DNA of 64,000 nt from Patescibacteria group bacterium (GCA_015485695.1 WFTB01000027.1:20183-84182); one strand, 5' to 3'. Counted from the first letter of the stretch, positions 16,898 to 62,615 are shown. The notes: generated by a model not told the origin, from the sequence alone. Translations and numbers: made by a program.

Positions 16898-16943
16898 TTA
16901 TGCCTCAAAATAACACGATCGACGTCAGATGAGGCACGGGAAA
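16898..16943 (+). repeat. REP/MITE-like palindromic element A (ATGCCTCA-aaataacacgatcgacgtcaga-TGAGGCACGGGAAA)
   Basis: Terminal inverted repeats flank a CGATCG-containing core. Member of a 6-copy family in this window. Confidence 0.7.
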
Positions 16944-16978
16944 ATTCATGATTGTTGTATTTTTTGCGAATCTTTAAA

Positions 16979-17026
16979 TCCCATGCCTCATATATACACG
17001 ATCGACGATATTTGAAGCACGGGAAA
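16979..17026 (+). repeat. REP/MITE-like palindromic element B (CCCATGCCTCA-tatatacacgatcgacgatattt-GAAGCACGGGAAA)
   Basis: Same family and same orientation as A. Slightly degenerate right arm. Confidence 0.65.
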
Positions 17027-17122
17027 CGCTAAAAATCGATAACGAATTTGTCTAATACATGCATTTGATTTTCAGGCGTGGAAGTGATACTGTGTAAGCG
17101 GTAGGGTGTATCGCTTTTTGAT

Positions 17123-17752
17123 ATGGACAAGCCCGTTGTCAAAAATAAATATTATGCTTTGCGACACGGGTTCTCGGAGAAGAACGAGCTTGGGTTGGTT
17201 GTAAGTTATCCGGAAAAGAGGCCTTATCACTTGACACAAAAGGGCATAGAACAAGTAAAAGAAGGTTCATTGTGGCTCAGATCCGAGCATATTGATTGCA
17301 TATATGCCTCAGACCTTACTCGTACTCGCGAGTCCGCGAAAATAGCGTCTGAAATCATCGACAACGGTGTGAGCGTGGTTTTCGATGAACGACTTCGCGA
17401 AATCGATTTTGGCGTGTTCAATGGCAAAACGCAAGATGAGTGGCGCGCGTTTTTTGATGATTATCAAAATGTGTCTGAACGATTCGTGAAACGTCCGGAT
17501 GGCGGAGAGAACTATGCTGATGTAGCGAAGCGTATGTCAGATTTTCTGTACGATGTGGAACAAAATAACGATAATCGGCATATTCTGCTAGTGTCTCACG
17601 GAATTCCGCTCTGGTTGTTGCAATGGGTGTCGTGGTGCGTGACGGGTGACGAGCTTAATAATGTGCCATATCCGGAAACCGGAAAAGCCGTAAAACTTGA
17701 TGTGCGATGTCCTCCTTATAAACAGAATAACATGATAACACGGGAGCATTAA
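17123..17752 (+). CDS. Histidine phosphatase family protein (phosphoglycerate mutase-like)
   Basis: RHG catalytic motif (YALRHGFSEKN) and a downstream conserved His region. Confidence 0.7.
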   Translation: MDKPVVKNKYYALRHGFSEKNELGLVVSYPEKRPYHLTQKGIEQVKEGSLWLRSEHIDCIYASDLTRTRESAKIASEIIDNGVSVVFDERLREIDFGVFNGKTQDEWRAFFDDYQNVSERFVKRPDGGENYADVAKRMSDFLYDVEQNNDNRHILLVSHGIPLWLLQWVSWCVTGDELNNVPYPETGKAVKLDVRCPPYKQNNMITREH

Positions 17753-17903
17753 AACAATCGGTGTGAGGATATCTGGTTTTACTTCTACTTCACTTACCGA
17801 GGGTAATCATGCCCGTGTGTCATCCCGGAATTTTGTAATCAACATGCTTGTGTGCGGAGTGCCTTGGTTTTTTGTTTTCATGCTTTAATGTTTTAATATT
17901 GTT

Positions 17904-20834
17904 ATGTTCAATCTGTCAAAAATCGAAGAAGATGTGTTAAAGTTTTGGGACGAAGACGATACGTTTCAAAAAACGGTTGATAAAGACGCTCCAAACGGCG
18001 CGTATACGTTTTATGACGGACCTCCGTTCGCGACGGGATTGCCTCATTACGGACACTTGGTTGGGAGCCTCATGAAAGACGTTGTTCCAAGATACTGGAC
18101 AATGAAAGGGCATAGAGTCGAACGCAAATGGGGATGGGATTGTCACGGACTACCCATTGAAAATATAGTCGAAAAGGAATTGGATTTGAATTCGCGCAAG
18201 GATGTTGTTGCGTATGGTGTCGATTCGTTCAATAAGACATGTCACGGCAAAGTGATGATGTATCGCGAGGAATGGAAAAAGACCGTACGCAGGTTTGGCA
18301 GATGGGCGGACATGGACAATGATTATAAAACCATGGACATTGAGTACATGGAAAGTATTTGGTGGGTTTTCAAAGAGCTATATGACAAAGGATTAATCTA
18401 TGAAGACTACAAATCAATGCATGTTTGCCCGCGTTGCGAAACCACTCTTTCGCAGTCTGAAGTCGCGGAAGGATATAAGGAGATAAAAGATCTCTCTGTT
18501 GTTGTTAAATTCCAAATCACAAATAACAAACCGCAAACAAATTCTAATGACCAAAATTCAAATATCAAAACGTATATATTGAGTTGGACGACAACTCCTT
18601 GGACGCTACCCGGGAATGTTGCATTGGCTGTGGGGGAAGATATTGTCTATGTTGTCATTGAAAAGAAAGACGAAGAAGAGGGTGAGCGCGTTCGGTTTAT
18701 ACTCGCGAAAGACCGCCTCAAAGATGTGTTAGGTGAAGATGAGTATGAAATAGTATATGAATTGAAAGGCTCTGACCTTGTCGGAATGTCGTATGATCCG
18801 GTTTTTCCGTACTACGCAAACTCTGACATAGAAAACAAAGAAAACGGCTGGAAGATTTACGCCGGTGATTTTGTAACCACTGAAGAAGGGACGGGAGTTG
18901 TTCATATCGCGCCGGCGTTCGGGCAAGACGATATGGATATGGGCAAACGGCACCATTTGCCGTTTATTCAGCATCTTGGCATGGACGGACATTTCAAGCC
19001 GGAGGTTTCTGATTTTGCGGGACTTTCGGTTAAGCCGATTGACGACCACATGTCGACAGATATTGAAATCGTAAAATACTTGGCGCGAAACGACAAACTG
19101 TTTAACAAGGAAAAGTACACCCACACATATCCGCATTGCTGGCGGTGCGATACACCTCTTTTGAATTACGCTACATCGTCTTTGTTTGTTAATGTTACTC
19201 GCATAAAGGACAATCTGCTCGAAAACGCGAAGAAGGTTTCTTGGGTTCCGAGCCATATGAAAGAAGGTCGCTTCGGGAATTGGCTGGAAGGAGCGCGCGA
19301 TTGGTCTATCTCTCGCCAGCGTTTCTGGGGTTCTGTGATTCCACTATGGAAATGTGAATCCGAATCCTGCGACAAGGAGCGTGTGTTCGGGTCAATCGAG
19401 GAGCTTGAACGAGCGTCGGGAGAATCCGTCTCGGATTTGCACAAACACATAGTCGATAATGTACATGTTCCGTGTGAATGCGGAAAAGTGATGAAGCGTA
19501 TTCCGGACGTGCTTGATTGTTGGTTTGAGTCCGGGTCTATGCCGTACGCGCAGTTGCATTATCCGTTTGAGAATAAAGAAAAATTCGAACAAAGTTTTCC
19601 GGCTCAGTTTATCGCCGAAGGAGCCGATCAAACTCGCGCTTGGTTTTATTATCTCCATATAATGGGAACCGCCTTATTTGATTCTAACGCTTTCGAGAAT
19701 GTGATTGTCAACGGTATTGTCCAGGCGGAAGACGGCAAGAAAATGTCCAAAAAACTCAAAAATTATCCCGAACCGGAAGTTTTGTTCGATAAGTATGGCG
19801 CGGACGCCGTTCGCTACTATCTTGCGACGTCGCCCGTGGTGCATGCGGATGACTTGAACTTTTCGGAAAAAGGCGTCGCTGAAAAGGCGAGAATGTTCAG
19901 GACACTTCACAATGTTGCGAGTTTTTATGAAATGTTTTCCGAGGGTGTTGATATCTCTGACTTGAGAGAAGAGGATTTAACACATTCATTGGATGTTTGG
20001 ATTAATGCTCGATTAAATCAAACCATTACACGAATTACCGAGCAGATGGATGCGTACGATATTCAAGCCGCGGCTCGACCAATTTCGGAGTTTATAGACG
20101 ACTTATCAACCTGGTATGTGCGCAGGTCGAGAGATCGTTTTAAATCGGAAGACGAAAGTATAAAACTTCCCGCTTTGAGAACATTGCGACATGTTTTGCG
20201 CAGACTTGCTCGTATCATGGCGCCGTTTACGCCGTTTTTCGCTGAACACATATACAAATATCGCATGGGCGGTGGTGTGTCTGTGCATATGACGGAATGG
20301 CCGACCGAGTATCTGGCAAATGAGAATAGAGATACGGGAGTTTTAGACAGGATGCGATTGGTTCGAAATATAGTTGAAACCGGACTCGCAAAGAGAACGG
20401 AGTTAAAACTCCCGGTCAGACAACCGCTTCGGGAACTTAAGGTCTTAAATTGCGAGGTTCAAATCGAAGAGGAGTATGCGCAACTGATTAAGGACGAACT
20501 TAATATAAAGGAAGTGACACTTGTTCAAGGAGATGGCGGGTTAGTCGTTGAGCTTGACTCGGAGATTACTCCGGAGCTGAAAATCGAAGGAATCAAGCGT
20601 GAACTTGTCCGTCAAATAAACAATATTCGCAAAAATCAAGGTCTTACGATAAAGGACAGAGTGAAAATTGCCGTAGAATCGGATAATAAAGACATCGCAA
20701 AAGCGATATCAGGCCACGGTCCGCAAATTCTCGAAGATACTCTCGCGATTGAGTTTGTTGATTCGCTTGATGGAGAAAAGCACGAAGTGAAAGTCGCGGG
20801 AGCGGTTGTATTTGTGTCGCTCAAGAAGGTGTAG
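17904..20834 (+). CDS. ileS: Isoleucine--tRNA ligase (type 2, archaeal/eukaryote-like)
   Basis: HIGH region GPPFATGLPHYGH and a KMSKS motif (KMSKKL). 976 aa. Editing-domain-sized insertion. Confidence 0.9.
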   Translation: MFNLSKIEEDVLKFWDEDDTFQKTVDKDAPNGAYTFYDGPPFATGLPHYGHLVGSLMKDVVPRYWTMKGHRVERKWGWDCHGLPIENIVEKELDLNSRKDVVAYGVDSFNKTCHGKVMMYREEWKKTVRRFGRWADMDNDYKTMDIEYMESIWWVFKELYDKGLIYEDYKSMHVCPRCETTLSQSEVAEGYKEIKDLSVVVKFQITNNKPQTNSNDQNSNIKTYILSWTTTPWTLPGNVALAVGEDIVYVVIEKKDEEEGERVRFILAKDRLKDVLGEDEYEIVYELKGSDLVGMSYDPVFPYYANSDIENKENGWKIYAGDFVTTEEGTGVVHIAPAFGQDDMDMGKRHHLPFIQHLGMDGHFKPEVSDFAGLSVKPIDDHMSTDIEIVKYLARNDKLFNKEKYTHTYPHCWRCDTPLLNYATSSLFVNVTRIKDNLLENAKKVSWVPSHMKEGRFGNWLEGARDWSISRQRFWGSVIPLWKCESESCDKERVFGSIEELERASGESVSDLHKHIVDNVHVPCECGKVMKRIPDVLDCWFESGSMPYAQLHYPFENKEKFEQSFPAQFIAEGADQTRAWFYYLHIMGTALFDSNAFENVIVNGIVQAEDGKKMSKKLKNYPEPEVLFDKYGADAVRYYLATSPVVHADDLNFSEKGVAEKARMFRTLHNVASFYEMFSEGVDISDLREEDLTHSLDVWINARLNQTITRITEQMDAYDIQAAARPISEFIDDLSTWYVRRSRDRFKSEDESIKLPALRTLRHVLRRLARIMAPFTPFFAEHIYKYRMGGGVSVHMTEWPTEYLANENRDTGVLDRMRLVRNIVETGLAKRTELKLPVRQPLRELKVLNCEVQIEEEYAQLIKDELNIKEVTLVQGDGGLVVELDSEITPELKIEGIKRELVRQINNIRKNQGLTIKDRVKIAVESDNKDIAKAISGHGPQILEDTLAIEFVDSLDGEKHEVKVAGAVVFVSLKKV

Positions 20835-21242
20835 GAAATCTCAAAACTCTTTCGAGGATGTTATTATCACCCTGATTCTCTCTGTAAAATAGCGATTTCT
20901 TGTTTTTAGATATATATATCAACGTTTTCGCCCAATCCATCTTGGCTTGTAGGTTTACTGTCTTTATTTTTATTCTTCTTCTTTGAATCTGATTCTGGTT
21001 TTCTACGGTTTTTTTCGGGGAATTCGCTAGTGGTTTCGTGTATTCTGCTTATCGGCGTTACACCGCCTTTGTTTTCAATTTCCATTTGAATTTTAGTTAT
21101 TCGATTTTATTAAGTCGCGCCTTTTATTACAGTGTACTGATTTTTCGTCGTATTGCCAAGTCAAAATTGTTTTTGGGATATTTGTTTTAATGAAGTTTTA
21201 CTTGTTGTGGGATATTGTATTGAATTGTGCTAAGATTTATAC

Positions 21243-21881
21243 ATGTATATACAGACACCAGGATACATATTGCGGTCCATGAATTGGCGAGAAGGGGATC
21301 GGCTTTATATTATTTTCACTCGGGAACTTGGCAAAGTGGAAGCGCAAGCTCGCGGAGCTCGCAAAATACAATCCAAGCTCGCCGGACATTTGCAACCTTT
21401 CAGGTCAGTGAATCTTCACCTTGCTCGCGGTAAGGTTTTCTGTCATGTGATAGGCGCTCAATCCGGGAACTCCGGTTATCTCGCGCAAAACGGTCGAGTG
21501 TTCGGCTATGCTCAGTATTTTCTGGAGCTTGTCGATCGCATGACCAAAGTCGGACAAAAAAGTGACGATATATTCCGTCTTTTGGAAGATGTGTTTGATA
21601 TTCTGGAAAATACGAAAGACTTTGAACGTCTCAAGAGACTGCGTATAGTGTTTTTGCTCAAACTTCTAAAGGCTACGGGGTTTAATCCGGAACGAAGAGT
21701 CGCTCGAGACAACAAAACTCGAAAAGAGCTTTTCGTATATCTAAACTGTCCTTTGAAAGAAGTGGATTTTACCGAAAATAACGGAACCTTGAAGACACTT
21801 TTTGGCATTTCTCAATATGGATTGAATGAAGTCATAGAGAGACCTCTCAACAGCGCCAAATATTTACAATCATTCGGTTGA
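21243..21881 (+). CDS. recO: DNA repair protein RecO
   Basis: N-terminal OB-fold pattern GYILRS..REGDRLYIIFTRELGKVEAQARGARK. Confidence 0.7.
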   Translation: MYIQTPGYILRSMNWREGDRLYIIFTRELGKVEAQARGARKIQSKLAGHLQPFRSVNLHLARGKVFCHVIGAQSGNSGYLAQNGRVFGYAQYFLELVDRMTKVGQKSDDIFRLLEDVFDILENTKDFERLKRLRIVFLLKLLKATGFNPERRVARDNKTRKELFVYLNCPLKEVDFTENNGTLKTLFGISQYGLNEVIERPLNSAKYLQSFG

Positions 21882-21897
21882 GCCGTATAATTACCGC

Positions 21898-22116
21898 ATG
21901 AATAACAAACATAAGGTTAAAAATTCGGAAGAAGAGGAAATAAACGATATCGAACTTGACAGCGAAGACATGGATGATTTTGTCGAGGACTCATACGATG
22001 GGTATTCGGATTATGATGAAGAGCGACGCCTTGGTCCGGTTGTGTTTTATACGATTTTGGTTTTGTTTCTCATAACCGCGTCATTGCTCGCGGGCTTTGT
22101 CGTTTTTTTGAAATGA
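21898..22116 (+). CDS. Hypothetical small acidic protein with a C-terminal TM helix
   Basis: Acidic N-terminal half, hydrophobic C-terminal segment. No recognizable domain. Confidence 0.3.
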   Translation: MNNKHKVKNSEEEEINDIELDSEDMDDFVEDSYDGYSDYDEERRLGPVVFYTILVLFLITASLLAGFVVFLK

Positions 22117-22221
22117 TATAAGAACTTTTTGACTCGCGATTCGTGGATTCGTTATCGCGTTTTTTGTTTGCGGTGTTGATTGTGGTATAATAATACCGTG
22201 TTTTGTTTTTAATGTTTTTTC

Positions 22222-23511
22222 ATGTCTTTTCTGAATTTTAATTTATCCGGATTTGGTTTGGATATTTCGGATTTTTCGATAAAAATTGCCCAGGTCGTGG
22301 AAGGAAAGGGAGAGCGACTTTTGTCCGCGTGGGGCAAGACCAAAATCAAACCCGGAGTCATTGACAAGGGCGTAATAACCGACAAAGAACAGTTGGTATC
22401 GGAATTGAAAAAACTGAAAGAATCGGTAAGTGGCAATCTCACGTCTAATTTTGCCGTAGCTTGTTTGCCGGAGACAAAAACTTTTATCAAGGTTTTCGAT
22501 TTGTCGAAGCCGAAAAAAACCGACAAAAAAGAAAGCTCTCAGCCTTTAATCGACGCCATAGAAAAAGAATTGCCAAAAGAAATTCCGCTTCCGGTAGAAA
22601 ACATAACTTATGATTTTCAGATAGTGCGTGAGGACGATTCGTCTTGGAGCGTCTTGGTGGGCGCGGCTCCGAGAGACATTATCATGGACTACAATGAAGT
22701 TATAAAATCCGCTGGATTCAGTGTTTTGGCGCTTGAGATTGAAGCGCAAGCGATAGTGCGAGCTTTGATGAGTGATAAGTATAAAACCTCCGTAAAAGAA
22801 AGGAAAATAAAAATACCGAAAATTCATATTCCAAAGATTTCTTTTGGTTCCAAAGAGGGCGAAGATTCGAGCGTTGCGGTCGAAAAAAATTCGAACTTAA
22901 ATGGCAAGGCCGAAAACGGTGAATCGATAATCGACAAAATAAGAAACGGATTCGGAGAAGAAAAGAAAACGGCGCAATACGTCAGGGAGCGTCCGACTTC
23001 CGAAAAGCCGACTATGATAGTTGATTTGGGCGCGGCTCGTTCGGGCATGATTGTCTATCATGGCGATTCGATACGTTTGACTCGCTCAATTCCAATTTCA
23101 GGATCCCAAATAACCAAAAAGATAATGGATGAGATGAAACTTACGCCTGCAAAGGCTGAACAAGCCAAAATCGTATGCGGTCTGGACGAGAGAAAGTGCA
23201 AGGGGAAATTGAAGCCGATAATAGACGGTTGGGTGAATGAGCTCGCGGAAGAAATATCCACAACCATGACGTATTATCACAACTCTTCCGCCGATTCGAA
23301 TGAAGGTTTCAAGGAATTGTTGCTTTGTGGGGGAGGGGCCGCCCTTAACGGCTTGTCAGAGCGACTTTCCGATGAGTTGTCCGTCCCCGCCAGCGCCATA
23401 GGCGACATATCCGATTATCGAGTTTCTTTTCACAAAGAAGTACCACCGATACCCAAAAGGTCTGTATCCGGATTTGCGACCGCAATCGGTCTTGCTCTGC
23501 GCTCCGTTTGA
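22222..23511 (+). CDS. pilM: Type IV pilus assembly protein PilM (actin-like ATPase fold), with an internal insertion
   Basis: GLDISDFSIKIAQV at the N-terminus and ASKHA-like motifs. Followed by pilN/pilO-like genes. Confidence 0.7.
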   Translation: MSFLNFNLSGFGLDISDFSIKIAQVVEGKGERLLSAWGKTKIKPGVIDKGVITDKEQLVSELKKLKESVSGNLTSNFAVACLPETKTFIKVFDLSKPKKTDKKESSQPLIDAIEKELPKEIPLPVENITYDFQIVREDDSSWSVLVGAAPRDIIMDYNEVIKSAGFSVLALEIEAQAIVRALMSDKYKTSVKERKIKIPKIHIPKISFGSKEGEDSSVAVEKNSNLNGKAENGESIIDKIRNGFGEEKKTAQYVRERPTSEKPTMIVDLGAARSGMIVYHGDSIRLTRSIPISGSQITKKIMDEMKLTPAKAEQAKIVCGLDERKCKGKLKPIIDGWVNELAEEISTTMTYYHNSSADSNEGFKELLLCGGGAALNGLSERLSDELSVPASAIGDISDYRVSFHKEVPPIPKRSVSGFATAIGLALRSV

Positions 23512-23530
23512 GTTTAGTTAAACACTTTGT

Positions 23531-24085
23531 ATGATTGATTTGAATTTTGTACCGGATCACGATCAAAAAGCGATAGCCAGATACGCCATGAGCATAGTTG
23601 CCAGACATTTGGCAATATGGTTTGTTTTTGCGATTGTTGTGGTCGCGCTTTTACTGGCTTGGGGAAAGTTTTTTTTGGAGCGAAACTTGGCAATATGGGA
23701 AGAGCAATCCATCTTGGTCGCTCAGCGTCGCGCTTCCGTCTCGGAGAGGATACGATTGTTAAACCAAACGGCAATCGCTGTTTCCAAAGTGCAAGAAGAA
23801 TACAGGCCGTGGTCCGAGCTGTTGATGGAATTCGCATCGATTGTACCGCCTGGAAATAGAGTGGATTCTCTTTTGATTGATAACAGAACAGGAATGGTCG
23901 AAATTCGCGGTTTCAGCACCACTAGAGAAAACGTGCTCGCATTTGAAAAGGCGCTCAATGATAATCCTTTTTTTACCGAAGTTAAATCGCCGTTAACCAA
24001 TTTGCTTAACCCCAAAAACATAGATTTCAGTTTTACCGCGAAACTTTCTTTCGGAGACTATGAATCCAGGGACGAGAACCTATGA
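23531..24085 (+). CDS. pilN: Type IV pilus assembly protein PilN
   Basis: Single N-terminal TM helix, then a coiled-coil and a PilN-like periplasmic domain. Located after pilM. Confidence 0.6.
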   Translation: MIDLNFVPDHDQKAIARYAMSIVARHLAIWFVFAIVVVALLLAWGKFFLERNLAIWEEQSILVAQRRASVSERIRLLNQTAIAVSKVQEEYRPWSELLMEFASIVPPGNRVDSLLIDNRTGMVEIRGFSTTRENVLAFEKALNDNPFFTEVKSPLTNLLNPKNIDFSFTAKLSFGDYESRDENL

Positions 24086-24108
24086 TATTCGTATGAATTC
24101 TGAAGAGC

Positions 24109-24714
24109 TTGGGTTTTTATAAAGGCGACATGAAAAAATATTTTCACCAATTTCAGATTATAGGGTTTGTGCTACTGTTTGCGGTGGTTACATGGTTTGT
24201 GGTGCTTCCGGTCAGTAATGACATTGTCGATTTGAGAAAAAATATTTTCCAACAACGAGAAGAGCTTGAGAAAATCTATCTTAGAGGTCAACTTCTCAAA
24301 AAAATGCAAGTCCAGCTAAAAGACATAGAAGAAGATATACCATCGGTAGAATCGGCAATATTACCGGTTGGAAAGCGTTTGTATTTGATTACCGCTCTCG
24401 AGAATATAGCTTCGGACAACAAATTGAAACAAGAGATTTCAATGGATGATTTCCCTGAAAACATATCCAAAATCACCGCATTGCCGATAAACGTAAAACT
24501 GAACGGAACTTTCAATGATCTTCTTAGGTATATTATCGATGTTGAGAGGATGGATTTTTATATAAATTGGCAAACCATATCCATAGGGTCGGGAATTGGC
24601 ACCAAACGAACGATTAGAAGGGGGCCGAATCTCGCTCCGTCCGCTCCGGAGAGCATTACCGAGAACAAATCAATACAAATAACCCTATCGGGGCAAGTAT
24701 ACTGGAGGCCGTAG
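24109..24714 (+). CDS. pilO: Type IV pilus assembly protein PilO-like
   Basis: N-terminal TM helix and coiled-coil (LRKNIFQQREELEKIYLRGQ). Position in the pilMNO cluster. Confidence 0.5.
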   Translation: MGFYKGDMKKYFHQFQIIGFVLLFAVVTWFVVLPVSNDIVDLRKNIFQQREELEKIYLRGQLLKKMQVQLKDIEEDIPSVESAILPVGKRLYLITALENIASDNKLKQEISMDDFPENISKITALPINVKLNGTFNDLLRYIIDVERMDFYINWQTISIGSGIGTKRTIRRGPNLAPSAPESITENKSIQITLSGQVYWRP

Positions 24715-24717
24715 AGT

Positions 24718-24981
24718 ATGAATATATTTTATCAAATTGTAAAAAGACTCAATATTATCATAATGATTGTCGTAATCGTTTCGATTGGTGCGACTTTGCG
24801 GTTTTTGTATTCGAACATGTACAAAACCATAATTCAAGCCGAGAGAATCGTATTGTTGAAGGGGCAAATAATAGACGCAACGTTCAATGAAAAACTATGG
24901 AGAGATATAACCGAAAACCTTGAAACAAAAAAAAGCGCGAAAAACATTTCCGAAAACGTAAAAGATCCGTTTAATTTTTAG
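24718..24981 (+). CDS. Hypothetical small membrane protein (possible PilP-position protein)
   Basis: One TM helix. Directly downstream of the pilO-like gene. Confidence 0.3.
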   Translation: MNIFYQIVKRLNIIIMIVVIVSIGATLRFLYSNMYKTIIQAERIVLLKGQIIDATFNEKLWRDITENLETKKSAKNISENVKDPFNF

Positions 24982-25109
24982 GTTGCATTCAATGTGTTCT
25001 CGGAAATCTTAGTTTCGTATCGAAATTATGAAATCATTGGAAGAATGGTTGGTTTTTGCGCTGAGTCTGGGCTCTCTATCGGCATTGCGAATCGATTTGA
25101 TTTGAATTA

Positions 25110-26366
25110 TCAGGTTTTTTCGTAAGAGCTCTTGAGTTTTTCGTATTCTTCGAAGATGTTTCTTGAAGCCTCGTGAATTTCTTCTTTTGTGGTGTATTTT
25201 CCGAGCGATATTCGAATACTGTTTGTTATTCTTTCATCGTCATACCCCAACGCTTTTAAGGCGTTGGACTTTTTTTGCGCTCCCGACGAACAGGCGGGTC
25301 CGTAAGATACGGATACACCTCTCATATCAAGCGCGGTCATTAGAGTAATGCCGTCCACTCTCGGAAAGTAAATGCTTGCATGAGAAGGGGATACATTGTC
25401 GCCGTATGGGTCATCAGGTCCGTTTATCTTGATGTCCGGAATTGTGTTTTTTAGATTGGTTATGAGTGTTTTTTTAAGGTTTGATATTTCTGTTTTATTT
25501 TCAATCGATATCAGCTCAACCGCTTTTCCGATTCCGACTATAAGCGGTGTCGGCATCGTGCCAGGTCGCAACGCTTTTTGTTGAGCGCCACCGTAGACCA
25601 GAGGGCTTATTTCGGTTCCTTCTCGTACATACAATATGCCTATACCTTTAGGTCCGTATATTTTGTTTCCTGACAATGACATCAAGTCGACTTTTGTGTG
25701 ATTTACATGGCAATTGAAACAGTTGAGGGCTTGCGCGGAATCTGCGTGAAAAGTGATTTTGTTTTCTCGAGTTTTGTTTTCACGAATCAGCATTTTACCG
25801 ATTTCTTTTATCGGCTGAACCAGTCCGAATTCGCTTTGAACATGCGTAATTGAAACAAGAACCGTTTCGTCTCGTATATGCTTTTTGATGCTTGATGCTT
25901 TTATGGTTCCGTCTTTGTCCGGTCTTATATATGTCACGTCCGCGCCGGCCGTTTTTTCCAGGTATTCACAAGTCGCATGAACTGAATCGTGCTCTATCGC
26001 CGTTGTGATGATATGTGGAAGTGTTTTGGCGTCGGCATTGTTTGATATGTATTTTTTTATAACACCTTGAATCGCCAAATTGTTTGATTCGGTGGCTCCA
26101 GAAGTGAAAATGATTTCTCCGGGGTCGCATCCCAGCTTGTCGGCTATTTGCAACTTCGCGTTGTCGACCGCTATTTGCGCTTTTTGTCCTTGTCGGTGCG
26201 CGGAGCTTGGATTGCCGTAATGTTCCGACCAATACGGATTCATGGCGGAAACGACATTCGGGTCTGTAGGAGTGGATGCCGCATAGTCGAGGTATATATT
26301 GTTTTTTTGTGATATGTGTTTCATATTGCCAAGATTCATTCTATCTGAATTCTCGAATATGTTCAA
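25110..26366 (-). CDS. Cysteine desulfurase (class V aminotransferase, NifS/IscS family)
   Basis: PLP-lysine region SLSGNKIYGPKGIGILYV and C-terminal Cys loop GPACSSGAQKKS. The true start may be the internal Met (MKHISQKNNIYLDYAASTP). Confidence 0.85.
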   Translation of the reverse strand: MNIFENSDRMNLGNMKHISQKNNIYLDYAASTPTDPNVVSAMNPYWSEHYGNPSSAHRQGQKAQIAVDNAKLQIADKLGCDPGEIIFTSGATESNNLAIQGVIKKYISNNADAKTLPHIITTAIEHDSVHATCEYLEKTAGADVTYIRPDKDGTIKASSIKKHIRDETVLVSITHVQSEFGLVQPIKEIGKMLIRENKTRENKITFHADSAQALNCFNCHVNHTKVDLMSLSGNKIYGPKGIGILYVREGTEISPLVYGGAQQKALRPGTMPTPLIVGIGKAVELISIENKTEISNLKKTLITNLKNTIPDIKINGPDDPYGDNVSPSHASIYFPRVDGITLMTALDMRGVSVSYGPACSSGAQKKSNALKALGYDDERITNSIRISLGKYTTKEEIHEASRNIFEEYEKLKSSYEKT

Positions 26367-26529
26367 TTTTTCTCCTTCTCATATCTTGAATTCGCTGAAT
26401 TTGCGATTCAAGTGTAAATAAAGAGAGCGTGTCAATAAATATTGCCATATGGCGCGAAAACATCCAATAGATTATCGCTATTTGCATTTTGCGTGTTGGA
26501 TAACCCGTAAACAACAAAATGAGTTTGCG

Positions 26530-26574
26530 TTTCCCGTGCCTCATCTGACGTCGATCGTGTTATTTTGAGGCGCG
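26530..26574 (-). repeat. REP/MITE-like palindromic element C (reverse orientation relative to A/B)
   Basis: tttCCCGTGCCTCAtctgacgtcgatcgtgttatttTGAGGCGCG. Its core is the exact reverse complement of the element A core. Confidence 0.7.
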
Positions 26575-26617
26575 AAAAATAGAGTTAACACATCGCTTAG
26601 AAGACATGGTTCCGTGT

Positions 26618-26663
26618 TTCCATGCCTCATTTGACGTCGATCGTGTTATTTTGAGGCATGGGA
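26618..26663 (-). repeat. REP/MITE-like palindromic element D
   Basis: tttCCATGCCTCAtttgacgtcgatcgtgttatttTGAGGCATGGGa. Confidence 0.7.
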
Positions 26664-26987
26664 CTATGGGTGTTTTTTTGTTTGTTTGTCGAGTGAGTTG
26701 AAACGTCCGTGCTTGATGGTGTGTTGATGGTGTTGATGCCGTTGGTGTATGATTGCACAATAGACGATAAATAGTGATGAGACTTCCCATGCCGGATAGA
26801 CGGTAATTCGGTGATATTATTGCTCGAGTTGGATTTTATGGAGCATGAGGTAACGCATACGGTTGACGTGTAGTTAATTATCGGCTATACTTTTGCACAG
26901 CGCTTCATGATTCGGTTACGCATTTTTCTGGCTCAGGGTAGCCTTTACTGCCGTTGAGCTTTTGTATAAGTTTAGTTAATAAAGCAT

Positions 26988-27272
26988 ATGGCGCATAGGA
27001 AAGCGGGCGGTTCCGCTAAAAGTTTGCGCGATTCTAACGCGCAACGTCTCGGTGTCAAGAAATACGGCGGTGAAAAAATCAAAGCCGGGCAAATCATACT
27101 TCGTCAACGCGGTACGAAATGGCATCCGGGTTCGGGTGTGCGAAGAGGAAGTGACGATACTTTGTTCGCCATGATTGACGGTGTGGTTAAATTCTACAAA
27201 CGAAAGACGCGCAAGTTTACGGGAAACATGAAACTAACCAAATACGTTTCCGTTGTTCCGGATTCGAAATAA
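26988..27272 (+). CDS. rpmA: 50S ribosomal protein L27
   Basis: [28 protein letters not shown] is canonical L27. No rplU is found upstream. Confidence 0.95.
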
Positions 27273-27298
27273 TCACCTGAAATTGACTGATATCAGCC

Positions 27299-27326
27299 AA
27301 AAAACCATCCCTGTGGATGGTTTTTG
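27299..27326 (+). terminator. Rho-independent terminator after rpmA
   Basis: Hairpin aaccatcc-ctgt-ggatggtt followed by tttttgg. Confidence 0.6.
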
Positions 27327-27336
27327 GTATTTTCCC

Positions 27337-27365
27337 TTGACAAATTATCACTGGTGGCGTAATGT
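27337..27365 (+). promoter_or_regulatory. Sigma-70-like promoter: TTGACA, 17-nt spacer, TAATGT
   Basis: TTGACA at 27337-27342, 17-nt spacer, TAATGT at 27360-27365. No protein gene follows on the + strand before the terminator at 27396-27459. Confidence 0.35.
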
Positions 27366-27371
27366 TGTGTT

Positions 27372-27459
27372 AGCCCTAAGCACGGTGCTAAAGAACCCCC
27401 CCCCCACACGACGCACACCACGTTTTTTTTCATCTTTCGTGGGGGGGGTTATTTTTTTT
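27372..27459 (+). ncRNA. Candidate small RNA (about 88 nt) ending in a C9/G8 homopolymer hairpin terminator
   Basis: It lies between the promoter above and a hairpin whose stem is CCCCCCCCCAC (27396-27406) paired with GTGGGGGGGG (27438-27447), followed by TTATTTTTTTT. The hairpin can also terminate rplI on the minus strand. Structure-based inference only. Confidence 0.3.
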
Positions 27460-27483
27460 CTTCCCGCATTTCGTTGCGGTTTT

Positions 27484-27933
27484 TTATTTTTTCCGTTTGA
27501 TTATCACATTGCATGACCCGCTCAATGATTCGCCGAGTTTGAACGGTACGGAATGAGCGCCTACAGTCTTAAGGTGTTCGTCCAACAGGATATTGTGGGG
27601 ATTAATCGTGACATTGTGCGTGTCTGAAAGTTTTTTGGCTATTTTTTTCTCATCTATTCCGGCAAACAGCGTTCCAGTCGTACTTGCTTTTTCGAGAAAC
27701 GTTATTTGAGCGGAATTGAGTTTTTTGTACGTTTCTTTCGCTTCTTTGGCGTCGAGATTCTCGCGCTTTTTTTGTTTTGCAAGTGTTTTGGCGTGGGTTG
27801 CCACGTTTTCTTTCGTTGCCGGCTTTGCTTGTTTGTTTTTTATCAGAACGTTTCTCGCATAAGCGACAGATACGTCGACAATATCGCCGGCATTTCCGAG
27901 TTTTGGAATTGATTTTAAGAGAATTACTTTCAT
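27484..27933 (-). CDS. rplI: 50S ribosomal protein L9
   Basis: MKVILLKSIPKLGNAGDIVDVSVAYARNVLI is canonical L9. The ORF-track start at 27954 is probably upstream of the true Met. Confidence 0.85.
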   Translation of the reverse strand: MKVILLKSIPKLGNAGDIVDVSVAYARNVLIKNKQAKPATKENVATHAKTLAKQKKRENLDAKEAKETYKKLNSAQITFLEKASTTGTLFAGIDEKKIAKKLSDTHNVTINPHNILLDEHLKTVGAHSVPFKLGESLSGSCNVIIKRKK

Positions 27934-28040
27934 AAAATATACGTTAATTCGCATCTTTTATATTTTGAACTATTTGCTTTATTGTTTTATTTTCTAAGTA
28001 TTCGTCTGTGGAGCGTCTGAAATTATTCGAGCTTCGGTTT

Positions 28041-30688: not shown

Positions 30689-30746
30689 TGACGTTTTCTC
30701 CGGTTTTTTTGATGAATGTTTCGTGTTTTTAATCTTCAATCGAATG

Positions 30747-30770
30747 ACTTTTGCAATCGATTGCAAAAGT
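30747..30770. promoter_or_regulatory. 24-bp perfect palindrome acttttgcaatc|gattgcaaaagt, abutting the -35 of the hrcA promoter
   Basis: Reverse complement of the first 12 nt equals the last 12 nt exactly. Candidate operator; it is not a canonical terminator, since no U-tract follows. Confidence 0.4.
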
Positions 30771-30771
30771 C

Positions 30772-30801: not shown

Positions 30802-30805
30802 GATT

Positions 30806-46880: not shown

Positions 46881-46917
46881 CAAAACCCTCTCAAAATAGG
46901 AATTTGAGAGGGTTTTG
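46881..46917. terminator. Bidirectional terminator hairpin between the convergent ATPase and DsbA-like genes
   Basis: 15-bp stem caaaaccctctcaaa/tttgagagggttttg with a 7-nt loop. Confidence 0.7.
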
Positions 46918-57042: not shown

Positions 57043-57050
57043 CTATCGAT

Positions 57051-57851
57051 GTGTCACGTATGCACGCGTTGCGAACTCGATTCAAAAAAGACATAGTTTC
57101 GGAATTCAAAATTCCGTCGATCGCGGTCAGGCGCATGAAAAAAGACTCAAGCGGAATGCTACATGACGATAGAGCTAAGGTCATAATCTACGCGGGAGGA
57201 ATGCCGGGATTTCCAGGGTTCGGAGAGGCGCATGATTTTTTCGTCAAGAAAGGGTACTGGGTTTTCGTGCCAAGATATCGTGGAACGTGGGAGAGTGGTG
57301 GTCGATTTTTGCAAATGTCTCCGCATAAAGATTTGTTGGATGTTGTTGACGGTATCTCTCGAGGATTCAAGGATGAGTGGAGCGGTATCGAATATAAACT
57401 TACTCCAAAAAAACTTTATTTGTTCGGTTCGAGTTTTGGCGGTGCCGCCGTCCTTCTTGCCGGATCAGATAAAAGAGTGACAAAAGTGGTTGCAAGATCA
57501 CCCGTTGTAGACTGGCTTAAGATGAATGAAGGCATAGAACCGCATGATTGGTTATACGGATTTGTAAAACGCGCGTTTGGCAATGCATACAGGCTCGTGA
57601 AACGAGATTGGAACAAGTTGCAAAATGGCGTGTTTTATAATCCGATTGCCCACACGAGAAACATCGACGGCAAAAAGGTTCTAATAATACACGCTAAGGA
57701 CGATGATGTAGTCACATATAAACCGAGTGTTGTTTTCGCGCGCAAGACAGGCTCGAGTTTGTGGCTGTTGAAATCCGGAGGACATCTTTCGAGTTCGATT
57801 TTTATGAGCGTTAGGGGGTACAAAAAAATCTCAGAATTTCTGAAAAAATAA
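57051..57851 (+). CDS. Alpha/beta hydrolase (prolyl oligopeptidase/dienelactone hydrolase-like)
   Basis: GxSxG nucleophile elbow (LFGSSFGGAAV) and a downstream His region. Confidence 0.6.
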   Translation: MSRMHALRTRFKKDIVSEFKIPSIAVRRMKKDSSGMLHDDRAKVIIYAGGMPGFPGFGEAHDFFVKKGYWVFVPRYRGTWESGGRFLQMSPHKDLLDVVDGISRGFKDEWSGIEYKLTPKKLYLFGSSFGGAAVLLAGSDKRVTKVVARSPVVDWLKMNEGIEPHDWLYGFVKRAFGNAYRLVKRDWNKLQNGVFYNPIAHTRNIDGKKVLIIHAKDDDVVTYKPSVVFARKTGSSLWLLKSGGHLSSSIFMSVRGYKKISEFLKK

Positions 57852-57853
57852 AT

Positions 57854-58657
57854 ATGGCAAAATTTTCTCTGACTACATGGAATATTATGGGAAAACGACC
57901 CGGAAATTCCAGGCTACTGAAAAAAGTTTCCAATTATTTGGATAAAAATTTATCGGATGTAATATGCCTTCAAGAAAATCCGCATGCGAAAGAAATGTTC
58001 GCAAATCATTCGCCTTATCTTTCGTATAAGATTGTGCAGAGTAAAAAAAAGAACATGTTTTTTTCGAATGCGAATACGATTTTGAGCAGATTCGCCATAG
58101 TTGGAAGCGGGGAGATAAGTTTCAGGAAACGCAACAAGAACAAATTCAGGCGAATGGCGAGCGCGCTTGACAGGCACGAATGCGTGTGGGCGGATATTAA
58201 ATTTCCCGGAGTCGTGTTGAGGGTGTATAATTGCCACCTTAAACTTATGGCGACAACCGCCAAGGACCGATTGAGAGCGATTGAGAAAGTGTATAAACAC
58301 GCCAAGACGGCATCCGGACCCGTTGTGGTTTGCGGAGACATGAACACTGTCCTGTCTCACAGGAAAGGTATTGCCAGAAAGGTGATTCATTGGTTTAATG
58401 AGATAGAAGACGTATATACGCATGGAAAGTTTCAAGTGATTGATGAGAGGTACGGGTTTCGAAGATTGGCCGAAAAGTACAATATGCAAGACGTTTTAAA
58501 AATCGACAAACCAACATTTGCCATTCCTCATACGTCAATAGAGCTTTTTAAATTAAAATTGGATTGGATTCTGATTAAAAAAATGCGCTTCATTTCATCT
58601 GATTACGGTCCGTACATATCTGACCACAGGCCGATACGCGCTCTCTTTGAATTATAG
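57854..58657 (+). CDS. Endonuclease/exonuclease/phosphatase (EEP) family protein
   Basis: N-terminal DVICLQEN and C-terminal SDHRPIRALFEL EEP motifs. Confidence 0.65.
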   Translation: MAKFSLTTWNIMGKRPGNSRLLKKVSNYLDKNLSDVICLQENPHAKEMFANHSPYLSYKIVQSKKKNMFFSNANTILSRFAIVGSGEISFRKRNKNKFRRMASALDRHECVWADIKFPGVVLRVYNCHLKLMATTAKDRLRAIEKVYKHAKTASGPVVVCGDMNTVLSHRKGIARKVIHWFNEIEDVYTHGKFQVIDERYGFRRLAEKYNMQDVLKIDKPTFAIPHTSIELFKLKLDWILIKKMRFISSDYGPYISDHRPIRALFEL

Positions 58658-58724
58658 TTTTAAGGTTTTGCGAGTTTGTGTTTAAAGGTTCGTTATTTGG
58701 TTTTATAATCTATAATTTTTTGAT

Positions 58725-59744
58725 ATGTTTTCATCTCTTAACGTTTTTGTGCAGTCGATTTCGATATTGATTTTGTTTTTGGCGCTTGGCAAATTCGCAA
58801 CATGGTTTGCTCAAAACACGCTTCTTAGGTGGACTAAAAAAACAGATACGAATTTGGATGATTTGATAGTGGAGAAAATCAAACCGCCGTTTTCTTATGT
58901 TATTTGGTTTTTGGGAATTCGTCTCGCCATTGCCCCCATAGGTTTGGAAATAGAATGGGTTGACAAGGTTTTAAACACCGTGATTTTGAGCATAGCGTTT
59001 TATTCGGTTGCGGTCGTATCGGACATAATAATTAAGGGCTTGCTCGGCAAAATCACGTCCAAAACATCGACAACTCTCGATGACACATTAATGCCACTCG
59101 TAAACAGAACCATAAATATCGTCATAGTGATACTTGGTATTATGTGGATTTTGGCCATTTGGGACATAGATTTAACTCCTTTGGTCGCAAGTCTGGGTGT
59201 AGCGGGTCTAGCTTTGAGTTTTGCCATGAAGGATTCGTTGGCGAATATTTTCGGCGGAATCTCTCTTATATTGGACCAGACGATTTCGGTGGGGGATAAA
59301 GTCAAGATAGAGAGCGGGGACATAGGGCATATTCACGAAATAGGTCTCAGGTCGACGAAACTTCGTACGGCGGACAATGAAATGATAATAATTCCGAACG
59401 GACAACTTGCGAATTCCAGAATTCAAAATTTTGCCAAGCCTTCATTGGCGCAACGAGTAGTCGTCAACTTCGGTGTTTCGTATGATTCGGAGGTTGACAA
59501 AGTTCGAAAGGTTGTCCGTGACGCGATTTTGAGCATAGATGACATAGATGAAGAACAGAAACCCCCGGAGGTTTTATTTATAGGCATGGGCGAGTCGTCT
59601 TTGGATTTTTCAGCTCGTTTTTGGATTTCAAATTACGCTAATGCCTGGGAGAAAAAACTTGAAGCGACGGATAAAATTTTTGCCACACTTTCTTCGAATA
59701 AAATCGACATACCGTATCCGACAAGAACCATAATAAGAAAGTAA
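58725..59744 (+). CDS. mscS: Small-conductance mechanosensitive channel (MscS family)
   Basis: Three TM helices, then the MscS beta-domain (GDKVKIESGDIGHIHEIGLRSTKLRTADNEMIIIPNGQL). Confidence 0.8.
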   Translation: MFSSLNVFVQSISILILFLALGKFATWFAQNTLLRWTKKTDTNLDDLIVEKIKPPFSYVIWFLGIRLAIAPIGLEIEWVDKVLNTVILSIAFYSVAVVSDIIIKGLLGKITSKTSTTLDDTLMPLVNRTINIVIVILGIMWILAIWDIDLTPLVASLGVAGLALSFAMKDSLANIFGGISLILDQTISVGDKVKIESGDIGHIHEIGLRSTKLRTADNEMIIIPNGQLANSRIQNFAKPSLAQRVVVNFGVSYDSEVDKVRKVVRDAILSIDDIDEEQKPPEVLFIGMGESSLDFSARFWISNYANAWEKKLEATDKIFATLSSNKIDIPYPTRTIIRK

Positions 59745-59864
59745 AATTCAATCCCAAAATTTGCCACACCACGCTGTTTTGGCATTTTTGGGATTTTTTG
59801 AGCGCTTGTTGTTTGGCGCCGGATTTTTATTTGTAATAAGATGGTCTTTCGGTATAATAATCAT

Positions 59865-61202
59865 ATGGAATTAAAATCCGTAAAAGAAATACCAAAACTA
59901 AAAAACAAGCGCGTTCTTTTGCGACTGGACCTTGATGTTTCCGTCGGGAGCGATGGTTTTATAGATGATTGTGAAGACGCGCGAATTAAGTCCGCTTTGC
60001 CTTCGATTGAGTTTCTTATTAAAAAAAACGCCCGAATCACAATCGTTGGACACATGGGGAGACCTGGCGGGCGAGTTAACGGCTCCTTGGTTTTGTTGCC
60101 GGTTGTCAAGCGCATGGCAACGCTATTGGGTGAATCGATGAATTCCAAAACAAGTATAGAAAAAACGAGATTGAATGATTTCGATGCGTATTCACTGATT
60201 ATCGAATCGAGTCGGATGAAAATCGATGTTTTGGAAAATATCCGTTTTTTTCCGGGAGAAACTCGCAATCACGCAAATCTCGCTTCCAAACTGGCGACGT
60301 TGGCGGATGTTTATGTAAACGACGCTTTCGCCGTATCGCACAGAGCGCACGCTTCGATAAACGCAATAACGAAAAAACTCCCTCCCTATGCCGGTATTCA
60401 ACTTATAAAAGAGGTCAAGAATCTTGGCAAAGTTCTAAAACGTCCTCCAAGACCTTTAACGCTTATAATGGGCGGGGTGAAAGCCGAAACAAAACTCAAA
60501 TTGATTGAAAAATTTTTGCCTCGTTCTGATTATGTTTTGCTCGGATCGGCTCTTGCGAATAATTTTTATTCCGAACTCGGTTTTGAAATAGGGAACTCTC
60601 GTTTGAGTTTAGGGGTCGGGTCTATCGTCAAAAGACTGATATCAAATCCGGCGTATACGATATTGGGCGATGTCGGGAAAAATATTCTGATAAATCCCGA
60701 CGAAGTCGCAAATCCAGACATAAAGACCATAAAATCTTTGCGTAAGCGAATAATTTTACCTCCTGACGTTGTATTGGGAGAAATGCACGACAATAAAAGA
60801 CTTGAAAACAATATCAGATTACCGCGTAGAACAGTTCTTGTGCGCGCGGATAATCCTGAAATATCTCCTCATCCTTACTCTATTTTGGATATAGGAAGTG
60901 TTACTGTTTCTTTGTACAAAGAAATCATAAAACACTCTAAGACAATTATATGGAACGGTCCCATGGGCATGTTTGAGAATGAGCAGTACGATTATGGTAC
61001 TTATCAGATAGCAAAATCCGTGGCAGAATCAAAAGGCAGAGCGATAATAGGAGGCGGAGACACCGTCACCGCGGTAGAGAGCGATCGCATTGATTTTTCC
61101 AGGAATACGTTCATATCGACCGGTGGAGGAGCGATGTTGGAATTTTTAATAAATCCAAATTTACCAGGAATATCGCCACTGATTAAAAAAACGACTGCAT
61201 GA
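59865..61202 (+). CDS. pgk: Phosphoglycerate kinase (with an internal insertion)
   Basis: RITIVGHMGRPGG, WNGPMGMFE and IGGGDT PGK motifs. ATG 59865 gives the canonical N-terminus; the track start 59841 adds 8 aa. Confidence 0.85.
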   Translation: MELKSVKEIPKLKNKRVLLRLDLDVSVGSDGFIDDCEDARIKSALPSIEFLIKKNARITIVGHMGRPGGRVNGSLVLLPVVKRMATLLGESMNSKTSIEKTRLNDFDAYSLIIESSRMKIDVLENIRFFPGETRNHANLASKLATLADVYVNDAFAVSHRAHASINAITKKLPPYAGIQLIKEVKNLGKVLKRPPRPLTLIMGGVKAETKLKLIEKFLPRSDYVLLGSALANNFYSELGFEIGNSRLSLGVGSIVKRLISNPAYTILGDVGKNILINPDEVANPDIKTIKSLRKRIILPPDVVLGEMHDNKRLENNIRLPRRTVLVRADNPEISPHPYSILDIGSVTVSLYKEIIKHSKTIIWNGPMGMFENEQYDYGTYQIAKSVAESKGRAIIGGGDTVTAVESDRIDFSRNTFISTGGGAMLEFLINPNLPGISPLIKKTTA

Positions 61203-62368
61203 ATATAGGATTTGATTTAAGGTCTATCATCGGTAAGCCGATATTCGGCTCGGATTCGCCCGCGGGAGTCGCGAAATACGCTTCCAATATATTGCGAAAA
61301 ATGGTATCACTTAATCCGGAGCATGATTTTTTTTGTTTTTTCAATTCGTTTAAACGGCCGAATACATCGTTGATTGATGATGTTTTGTCAAAGAGAAACG
61401 TTCATTTGATAACAACCGGAGTTCCCAACAAGCTGTTCGACCCGATGGCAAAGGTTGTCAATCAACCCAAAATAGACAAGATTATAAAGAAAATAAAAGG
61501 CGATGATATCGATGTTTATTTCTCTCCGCATCTTAACATATCCCCGCTTACCGAAAAAGTTCGACATGTCATGACGGTGCATGACTTGTCCTTCGAACTT
61601 TACCCCGAGTTTTACGGTATGCGAAAATTATATTGGCATTGGGTTCAAAATGTGCGTTCTCAGTGTTTGGATGCGGACGCGATTATCGCGGTGTCGGAAA
61701 ACACAAAATATGATTTAATCGATTTGTACGGCATAGACGAAAATAAAATCCATGTAGTGCATTCCGGAATGCCGATAAGAGCAAAAGAAGACGAAGACGG
61801 CAAAAAAGACATGCTTGAAAAGGTGCGGGTAAAATATGGTATTCCAAGTGATTACTTTTTATACATAGGAACTCTAGAGCCCAGAAAAAACATCGAGAGT
61901 ATAATAGAAGCGTATTCCAACTCTCGCATATCCGAGACATCACTGGTTATAGCGGGAGGCAAAGGATGGAAGTATTGCCAAATATACAAAACCGCAAATA
62001 AATCAAAACGCAAAAACAACATATACTTCACCGGTTATGTAGATGAAATTGACAAATCCGCATTAATCGAAAACGCAAGAGCTTGTATTTATCCGAGCTT
62101 TTATGAAGGTTTCGGATTTCCGCCACTGGAGGCTATTTCCAGAAACACGACCGTCATAACATCGCATGTGTCATCTATACCGGAAATTGTCGGAACGAGA
62201 GCGGTTTACGTGGATCCTTACAATATAAATGACATAACTTGCGCCATGAATACGGTTTTGAGCGAAAAAGAAAATCGGTCAAATTCACCCAATTACAATA
62301 TCGAATATTCCTGGGACGTTGCCGTTGAAAAAACCATTGATATTATAATGGCGCGACATATCTCTTAA
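61199..62368 (+). CDS. Glycosyltransferase family 4
   Basis: EGFGFPPLEAI motif. Start overlaps the pgk stop. Confidence 0.7.
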   Translation: MNIGFDLRSIIGKPIFGSDSPAGVAKYASNILRKMVSLNPEHDFFCFFNSFKRPNTSLIDDVLSKRNVHLITTGVPNKLFDPMAKVVNQPKIDKIIKKIKGDDIDVYFSPHLNISPLTEKVRHVMTVHDLSFELYPEFYGMRKLYWHWVQNVRSQCLDADAIIAVSENTKYDLIDLYGIDENKIHVVHSGMPIRAKEDEDGKKDMLEKVRVKYGIPSDYFLYIGTLEPRKNIESIIEAYSNSRISETSLVIAGGKGWKYCQIYKTANKSKRKNNIYFTGYVDEIDKSALIENARACIYPSFYEGFGFPPLEAISRNTTVITSHVSSIPEIVGTRAVYVDPYNINDITCAMNTVLSEKENRSNSPNYNIEYSWDVAVEKTIDIIMARHIS

Positions 62369-62443
62369 CGGTTCCAATCGATATTTTCATGATATTGGCT
62401 TTGATTATTGATTATTTGCGCTTTTGATTCGAGCAAGAAGCAT

Positions 62444-62477
62444 AACAAAACCGCGTCGTAATGTGCGCGGTTTTGTT
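62444..62477 (+). terminator. Terminator-like hairpin (12-bp stem) downstream of the GT4 gene
   Basis: aacaaaaccgcg-tcgtaatgtg-cgcggttttgtt. The U-tract is weak. Confidence 0.45.
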
Positions 62478-62487
62478 ATATCAACCT

Positions 62488-62540
62488 AAAATCCCATGCC
62501 TCAAAATACGTCGATCGTGTTATTTTGAGGCATGGGATTT
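62488..62540 (-). repeat. REP/MITE-like palindromic element E (most symmetric copy)
   Basis: aaATCCCATGCCTCAAAATAcgtcgatcgtgtTATTTTGAGGCATGGGATtt has 16-bp perfect arms. Confidence 0.75.
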
Positions 62541-62577
62541 AGATGTTGGTACCGGATACTGTAAGTTTGAAATCTTT

Positions 62578-62615
62578 TTCATGCCTCATCTGATTTCAAT
62601 CGTGTGTGGTTGAGG
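62578..62615 (-). repeat. REP/MITE-like element F (degenerate), overlapping the 3' end of the P-loop kinase gene
   Basis: tcATGCCTCAtctgatttcaatcgtgtgtggtTGAGGttg. Confidence 0.45.

Follow-up and report, generated by a model that had tools for sequence, protein, structure and literature searches.

Paired palindromic repeats of a sequence-novel, two-hairpin family in a Patescibacteria genome segment

The DNA considered here is a stretch of 64,000 nucleotides (nt) from an uncultured, small-celled Patescibacteria group bacterium (GCA_015485695.1, WFTB01000027.1:20183-84182), which we refer to as the window. Its gene content is of a housekeeping kind (NusG, L11, L1, ScpAB, TIM, IleRS, RecO, PilMNO, L27, L9, HrcA-GrpE-DnaK-DnaJ, PGK and others). 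At three loci among these genes, both reading of the loci and a repeat search find a palindromic element of about 44-45 nt, present in six copies that form three same-orientation pairs. Locus A lies between tandem genes on the + strand, for a HAD hydrolase and then a histidine phosphatase; locus B occupies the 621-nt spacer (26367-26987) between the divergent genes for cysteine desulfurase and ribosomal protein L27; and locus C lies between the convergent genes for a GT4 glycosyltransferase and a CPT-like kinase. An earlier note on this DNA had described the contexts as tandem, divergent and convergent, and this is what we find; the flanking genes have no function in common.

We set the orientation of each element by its asymmetric core, the 12-mer ACACGATCGACG, which has five exact occurrences in the window against 0.01 expected. 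The longer 31-nt pattern GCCTCA-N5-ACACGATCGACG-N5-TGA also has five exact matches (0.00 expected), the sixth copy, C1, being degenerate. When the copies are made into a covariance model and the window is searched with filters off, the six are recovered at 51.8-74.8 bits and no others, the next-best match scoring 10.9 bits (E 1.3). On the + strand, pair A consists of A1 (16898-16943, 74.8 bits; arms TATGCCTCA and TGAGGCACGGG) followed by A2 (16979-17026, 68.7 bits). The other two pairs are on the - strand: B1 (26618-26663, 74.4 bits; followed on the + strand by GTGTTTTTTTGTTTG) with B2 (26530-26574, 71.6 bits), and C1 (62579-62622, 51.8 bits) with C2 (62489-62540, 72.1 bits). Aligned as 44-nt units in the repeat search, the copies span 16898-16941 and 16981-17024 on the + strand and 26534-26577, 26620-26663, 62494-62537 and 62579-62622 on the - strand, with start-to-start distances of 83 (A), 86 (B) and 85 nt (C); as hairpins they measure 44-52 nt. 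The six related elements of the earlier note, and their same-orientation pairing, are thus confirmed by locus reading, repeat search and covariance model alike, and the spurious open reading frames (ORFs) at 16748-16951 and 26560-26790 do translate them as it had claimed (CLKITRSTSDEA and CLKITRSTSNEA). Its 16-bp arms for the best copy, C2, need correcting, however: they are perfect over 20 nt (62489-62508 and 62521-62540), with 12 nt between.

The claim that all copies are intergenic holds for five of them, which are extragenic, but not for C1. This copy has CGATTG in place of CGATCG and retains of its arms CCTCA/TGAGG alone. It overlaps by 34 nt the 3' end of the kinase ORF (62586-63098), whose final 11 codons (QPQPHTIEIR) and TGA stop are element sequence (- strand, 62586-62622). 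The Pfam CPT match of that ORF stops at residue 154 of 170.

Are the elements, then, simply the terminators of their neighbours? The good copies fold far more stably than shuffled sequence (z -2.5 to -9.9), with B1 at -28.3 kcal/mol and z -5.2 on the + strand and C2 close to z -9 on either strand. Stable hairpins at gene ends, the U-rich tails of B1 and C1 on one strand, and the repeated terminator hairpins that other loci of the Candidate Phyla Radiation (CPR) also bear would all suit ordinary intrinsic terminators that resemble one another through local duplication. We nevertheless consider this very unlikely. The usual terminators of this genome differ, having a short GC stem flanked by A and T tracts (62442-62479, 46881-46917 and 6142-6177), and C2 follows directly, after 9 nt, on one of these, the A-tract/T-tract hairpin of the GT4 gene at 62442-62479 (+ strand; arms ATAACAAAACCGCG and CGCGGTTTTGTTAT), which lies outside the family. 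Most copies have no T-run within 2 nt of the stem, none of the four elements of loci A and B was called when 16000-28000 was scanned for terminators, and the U-rich tails of B1 and C1 are on the strand opposite to the core ACACGATCGACG. Pair B, moreover, lies upstream of both of its flanking genes, and termination has no need of a conserved asymmetric 12-nt core. The earlier note's view of a genuine palindromic repeat family, rather than a terminator tied to one type of gene, is supported.

Alignment of the pairs shows that the repeat unit is not the single palindrome but the pair, a two-hairpin module of about 130 nt in which the order, type I then type II, is fixed. A type I hairpin reads CCCATGCCTCA-AAATA-ACACGATCGACG-TCAGA-TGAGGCAYGGG; a spacer of about 40 nt follows, poorly conserved and ending in a TAAATC box; the type II hairpin has the same arms and core with an extended inner stem (...ACG-TATTT-TGAGG; ATAT...ATAT in A2). 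Taken together, the outermost arms of the two hairpins form an inverted repeat (CCCATGCCTCA ... TGAGGCAYGGG). In every pair the hairpin that comes first is of type I (...ACGTCAnATGAGGCAT), as in A1, B1, the degenerate C1 and a second organism that we describe below. The second is of type II (...ACG(T/A)ATTyTGA(G/A)GCA), preceded by a TAAATC-like box, in A (A2), C (C2) and the second organism, with B2 as the exception. This module, of fixed order and recurring in another organism, is what the earlier note had missed.

Repeats of one orientation separated by spacer-sized gaps might recall a miniature guide-RNA array, either CRISPR or one of the stem-loop arrays of the tandem interspaced guide RNA system TIGR-Tas. 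The arrays of the latter, which occur in CPR bacteria including Patescibacteria, comprise tandem palindromic hairpins (PMC12045711). A TIGR unit, though, has two variable spacers of 8-12 nt, box C/D motifs and an adjacent gene for a Nop-domain Tas protein (PMC12045711), whereas the interior of the present hairpins is conserved between copies and, at 22 nt only, too short. A CRISPR array would have near-identical repeats, unique spacers and usually cas genes; here each locus holds just two repeats, with 68-86% identity to the reference copy, and the spacer is itself partly conserved (the TAAATC box). In the window Pfam called neither a cas gene nor one for a Nop-domain (Tas) protein, nine of the ORFs having no match, and none was seen in the 19 kb of flanks. 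With only two units, a conserved interior and no cas or Tas gene seen, both guide-array readings are effectively refuted, and we regard their likelihood as negligible.

The exceptional copy B2 is informative in another respect. Over 42 of 42 positions it is identical to A1 (16902-16943), whereas its left arm, TCGCGCC, differs from that of A1 and is instead common to the position-2 hairpin of the second organism. We read the 42-nt identity together with the differing flank as gene conversion, and the simplest reading would be a conversion tract laid over an ancestral type II copy at B2. No target-site duplication (TSD) was found at the hairpin or pair boundaries of A, B, C or the second organism, and Pfam called no transposase or integrase in the window; in the flanks, too, no transposase was seen. 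Of the earlier proposal that the elements are mobile or recombinogenic, the recombinogenic half is supported by the A1/B2 identity; for mobility, neither TSDs nor a transposase were found in the window and its 19 kb of flanks. Same-species contigs, retrieved by exact-protein look-ups from three NCBI metagenome-assembled genomes (MAGs) and several ENA/Logan assemblies, are 99.9% identical to the window and have the elements at matching positions. Against one strain contig (L006) the window shows six single-nucleotide differences over 6.6 kb, two of them within A2. Two further same-species contigs begin inside elements, L009 at window position 16914 (the A1 core) and L005 at 26634 (the B1 core). 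Such assembly breaks fit a repeat, but the known copies suffice to account for them and they are no proof of further copies.

A metagenome scan yielded one true relative (L011) and one high-GC chance match (L012). On a longer contig of the organism with the true relative (L095; 35% GC against 42% in the window, with gyrB and no GATC avoidance), three hairpins stand in tandem in one spacer. Two of these, H1 and H0, are a type I hairpin followed, after some 40-55 nt, by a type II hairpin in direct orientation, the same order as in the window pairs, and for one hairpin the two genomes agree at about 87% identity despite the difference of 7 points in GC. The third, H2, has arms unrelated to the family that are yet complementary (12 Watson-Crick pairs and one G-T at 16 positions); its core, CACGATCG, is retained, and the A and T tracts on either side give it the look of a terminator. 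In an alignment of all nine hairpins, 12 stem pairs are changed on both sides (0 of 500 shuffles), and the structure beats all slid versions; most of this pair-change signal comes from L095 H2 alone. Hairpin and core are kept when the arms change. A PaaX-like regulator of 134 residues encoded beside these hairpins was considered and set aside, as it has no homologue in the window or its flanks.

Could the module be a structured RNA, either encoded as a small RNA gene or acting in cis within a transcript? On the ACGUCGAUCGUGU strand it would read type II, spacer, type I and a U-rich tail. This strand folds more stably in eight of the nine hairpins because the conserved core there forms an inner helix with G-U pairs, capped by a GAUC loop. 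On it, U-rich sequence comes after the last hairpin at locus B (GUGUUUUUUUGUUUG), at locus C (UUGUUUUGAUUUUUGG) and weakly at A, and in the second organism the canonical A-tract/T-tract hairpin H2 stands there, about 30 nt further on; it is these features that keep the RNA reading alive, beside the conservation of sequence and order in two organisms. Several observations speak for caution. No convincing promoter lies upstream, and locus C, with 9 nt from the GT4 terminator to C2, has no room for one. The strand preference rests mainly on one shared core, which is not independent between copies, and the count of G-U versus C-A oppositions in the stems (13 versus 7) does not decide which strand would be transcribed. 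There is no Rfam match, the nearest relatives lack the element, and three copies of one small RNA within 46 kb would be unusual. We regard a structured RNA as rather unlikely.

The distribution among relatives bears on the origin of the elements. The best relatives of IleRS (60% identity) and of cysteine desulfurase (53%) are proteins from Patescibacteria (CPR) MAGs. The nearest syntenic relative, GCA_054015635.1, has the same gene order from DnaJ through HrcA-GT4-S41-L9-L27 to the desulfurase, but its spacer between L27 and desulfurase measures 136 nt and is free of elements, compared with 621 nt and two elements here, and the covariance model found no family member in 21 kb of this genome. 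In the contig closest by IleRS (L013, 60%), the histidine phosphatase adjoins IleRS, and the upstream spacer is likewise element-free. Since the corresponding spacers of relatives are empty, the elements are taken to be lineage-specific at A and B, and not an ancestral operator or regulatory site. On this comparison they were probably gained in the present lineage at the two loci that can be set beside relatives; at protein identities of only 53-60%, exact empty sites are not definable.

This result also touches on the idea that the palindromes are recognised as duplex DNA by a sequence-specific protein, be it a regulator, a nucleoid protein or a site-specific recombinase, an idea we consider unlikely. 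Arms and core are indeed conserved in sequence, and not in pairing alone, in two organisms, the spacing is a constant 83-86 bp, and locus B falls in a divergent promoter region where a promoter-like site, TCGACA-18-CATAGT, abuts B1. As for the layout of such a site, inverted 11-bp half-sites might surround an asymmetric 22-bp centre, and two sites about eight helical turns apart might be bound cooperatively, an arrangement that strikes us as improbable in turn. The elements are missing from the promoter region of the syntenic relative, however, at locus C, with convergent 3' ends on both sides, an operator would have nothing to control, the flanking genes have no shared function, and the potential of L095 H2 to form a hairpin with different arms favours a structural over a half-site requirement.

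Has the family been met before? Among 185,579 genomes, one for each GTDB species, the exact pattern has 0 matches, which implies that the source species with these loci is not represented in that set. Viral contigs (searched with three patterns), PLSDB plasmids and INPHARED phages gave no match, and the element translated in six frames identified, among 5.8 billion proteins, no other spurious ORF carrying it. Rfam 15 at gathering thresholds matched only three tRNA genes in the whole window (12002-12074, 12246-12318 and 13035-13106, + strand) and no family for the elements, and permissive Rfam scans of the three loci returned generic hairpin matches only, far below threshold. The elements correspond neither to a known structured RNA nor, beyond the one ORF tail, to coding sequence, and so the earlier reading of them stands on this point. 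Full-text searches that paired CPR or Patescibacteria with palindromic-repeat terms turned up no account of such a family, the terms for MITEs (miniature inverted-repeat transposable elements) being too loose to inform. The covariance model, run over 1.36 Mb of other CPR loci, found L011/L095, one weak match (L049) and nothing else convincing. The weak match is a 38-nt hairpin in Berkelbacteria RIFOXYA2_FULL_43_10 (L049 17953-17990), TTGAAATAT-ACACGATCGACG-ATATTTCAA, with 22 bases identical to A2, a match too long for chance. It lies in frame inside the Mfd gene, and as that Mfd aligns to the E. coli protein without insertion or added residues, we rejected it as an inserted element. Judged by the databases searched, the family appears to be sequence-novel.

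We favour the view that these are sequence-novel, two-hairpin extragenic palindromic repeats of the kind known as repetitive extragenic palindromic (REP) sequences and bacterial interspersed mosaic elements (BIMEs), and give this a probability of about 45%. It is suggested by a non-random repeat that is extragenic in three unrelated contexts, folds stably and has no rival identity, and further by the concerted evolution of A1 and B2, the capture of a gene end by C1, the same module in L095 and a hairpin kept despite differing arms. Several observations weigh against it. Copy number is modest, the covariance model having added no copy over a further 19 kb of flanking sequence from the same genome (three pairs in about 83 kb), and the null protein search with the translated element is weak evidence against hundreds of copies. 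The 99.9%-identical strains show no presence/absence polymorphism that would reveal an empty site, the elements have neither TSDs nor sharp boundaries, and no cognate transposase was seen in the 83 kb. The traits that define REPs, a GTAG head and inverted pairing, are lacking. Finally, the roughly 87% identity and conserved order in L095 may just as well stem from purifying selection acting on a functional site, and not from selfish spread.

How might such a module arise and act? We envision a scenario whereby copies arose in this lineage by duplication or insertion and are homogenised by recombination. The module would work as single-stranded nucleic acid, either in a transcript or in transiently unpaired DNA, with the invariant, GATC-centred core displayed on the long stem into which each unit folds. 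E. coli REPs block transcriptional read-through and 3' exonucleases. By analogy, the main effect on the host may be passive, with stable stem-loops at the ends of transcription units or between them impeding both, and a gene might have taken up the C1 copy at its 3' end. The most likely agent of spreading would be a trans-acting enzyme that recognises arms and core, for example an HUH/Y1 transposase, although none was found in the roughly 83 kb.

Alternatively, the module may not be selfish at all. It is conceivable, though rather unlikely, that it is a sequence-constrained functional signal common to distantly related Patescibacteria, being either a new small or cis-acting RNA on the ACGUCGAUCGUGU strand that ends at the type I hairpin, or the site of an undescribed single-strand-specific enzyme that reads the GATC-centred 12-nt core on a long stem. 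This suggestion draws on the hairpin identity of about 87% across genomes of 42% and 35% GC, on the shared order of type I and type II, and on the core and pairing kept in H2; of all its features, only this conservation of order and sequence in an organism of different composition could lift the module above selfish DNA. Patescibacteria genomes are small and streamlined. If the repeats are selfish, such genomes would still tolerate or use repeat DNA, and the repeats would point to an undiscovered mobilising enzyme; if they are functional, part of the Patescibacteria would have in them a compact and conserved nucleic-acid signal of its own. Either way the finding is modest and descriptive: the family is real, sequence-novel and of a familiar kind.

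Other features of the window and of related contigs deserve mention in their own right. Between the HAD gene and A1, the 18-nt unit CCGTGAGCAGTACAACTA is tandemly duplicated (16785-16822). A second repeat family of about 28 nt, AATCTCTAATTCGCGCGAATAGGCGAAT with the palindrome TTCGCGCGAA, has four + strand copies (515-556, 825-866, 13356-13397 and 13975-14016). Three stand just upstream of + strand ORFs, for an ArsR-like helix-turn-helix protein (582), a DUF4258 protein (869) and a CYTH protein (13414); the fourth, at 13975, covers the stop codon of ORF 13414-13983, and the CYTH ORF at 14187 follows about 170 nt downstream. The copies could represent a promoter or operator that these genes have in common. 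A perfect 13+13 palindrome, GACTTTTGCAATC|GATTGCAAAAGTC (30746-30771), unlike the CIRCE consensus, sits in the spacer upstream of hrcA (30952), a position that would suit an HrcA operator. The window is also poor in GATC (83 sites observed, 254 expected) and GGCC (38 against 115), each at about one third of expectation; the nearest relative avoids both likewise, a hint of restriction pressure, and the observation also extends to contigs L094, L098 and L101. The apices or cores of the hairpin elements account for five of the 83 GATC sites, but as the second element-bearing organism shows no such avoidance, we conclude nothing from GATC at the hairpin apex. In two related Patescibacteria MAGs (L082 13364-13424 and L086 7358-7416), a long hairpin lies some 450-660 nt downstream of IleRS, its inner part CAATCGTGAATAGGGGGA..CACGATTG conserved and its outer arms covarying; it may be a conserved structured RNA or a terminator.

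How do the modules compare with known repeat systems? MITEs such as Correia/NEMIS, and the pneumococcal BOX elements, are likewise small (here about 130 nt), non-coding intergenic modules whose outer arms are inverted repeats and which can supply gene ends. Here, by contrast, there is no TSD, each half is a full palindrome, and no parent insertion sequence (IS) with matching ends is seen. The palindrome-associated transposable elements derived from IS200/IS605 share with the pairs two similar but non-identical sub-terminal hairpins in the same orientation, the lack of usual terminal inverted repeats and of a TSD, and a modest folding preference for one strand. They differ in that no TnpA or TnpB is encoded in the 83 kb examined, that no clear tetranucleotide target or cleavage motif emerges from the left flanks of the four pairs, and that the palindromes of IS608-type elements are imperfect while the present hairpins are much longer and more perfect; these two-hairpin elements are thus resembled in layout only.

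REPs and REPINs carry a conserved 5' GT(A/G)G head that is recognised by the REP-associated tyrosine transposase, RAYT, the Y1 enzyme that mobilises REPINs; such systems number tens to hundreds of copies in a genome and have REPs on either side of the RAYT gene. The elements here begin with (T)CCCATGCCTCA or TCGCGCCTCA, and GTAG or GTGG is conserved at neither end. All three window pairs and the L095 pair are direct, not inverted as in REPINs, judged by the asymmetric core. The partners are distinct types in fixed order; the hairpin is longer (about 45 nt) and has an invariant asymmetric core of 12 nt; and there are three clusters with six copies, and no Y1 transposase or RAYT in the roughly 83 kb. 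What remains of the earlier label REP/MITE-like, once the GTAG head, inverted pairing and TSD are set aside, is the short extragenic palindrome. In that respect the elements resemble the REPs and BIMEs of Enterobacteria and Pseudomonas: in both cases short imperfect palindromes occur extragenically in small clusters, form stable stem-loops in transcripts, evolve in concert and are specific to their lineage.

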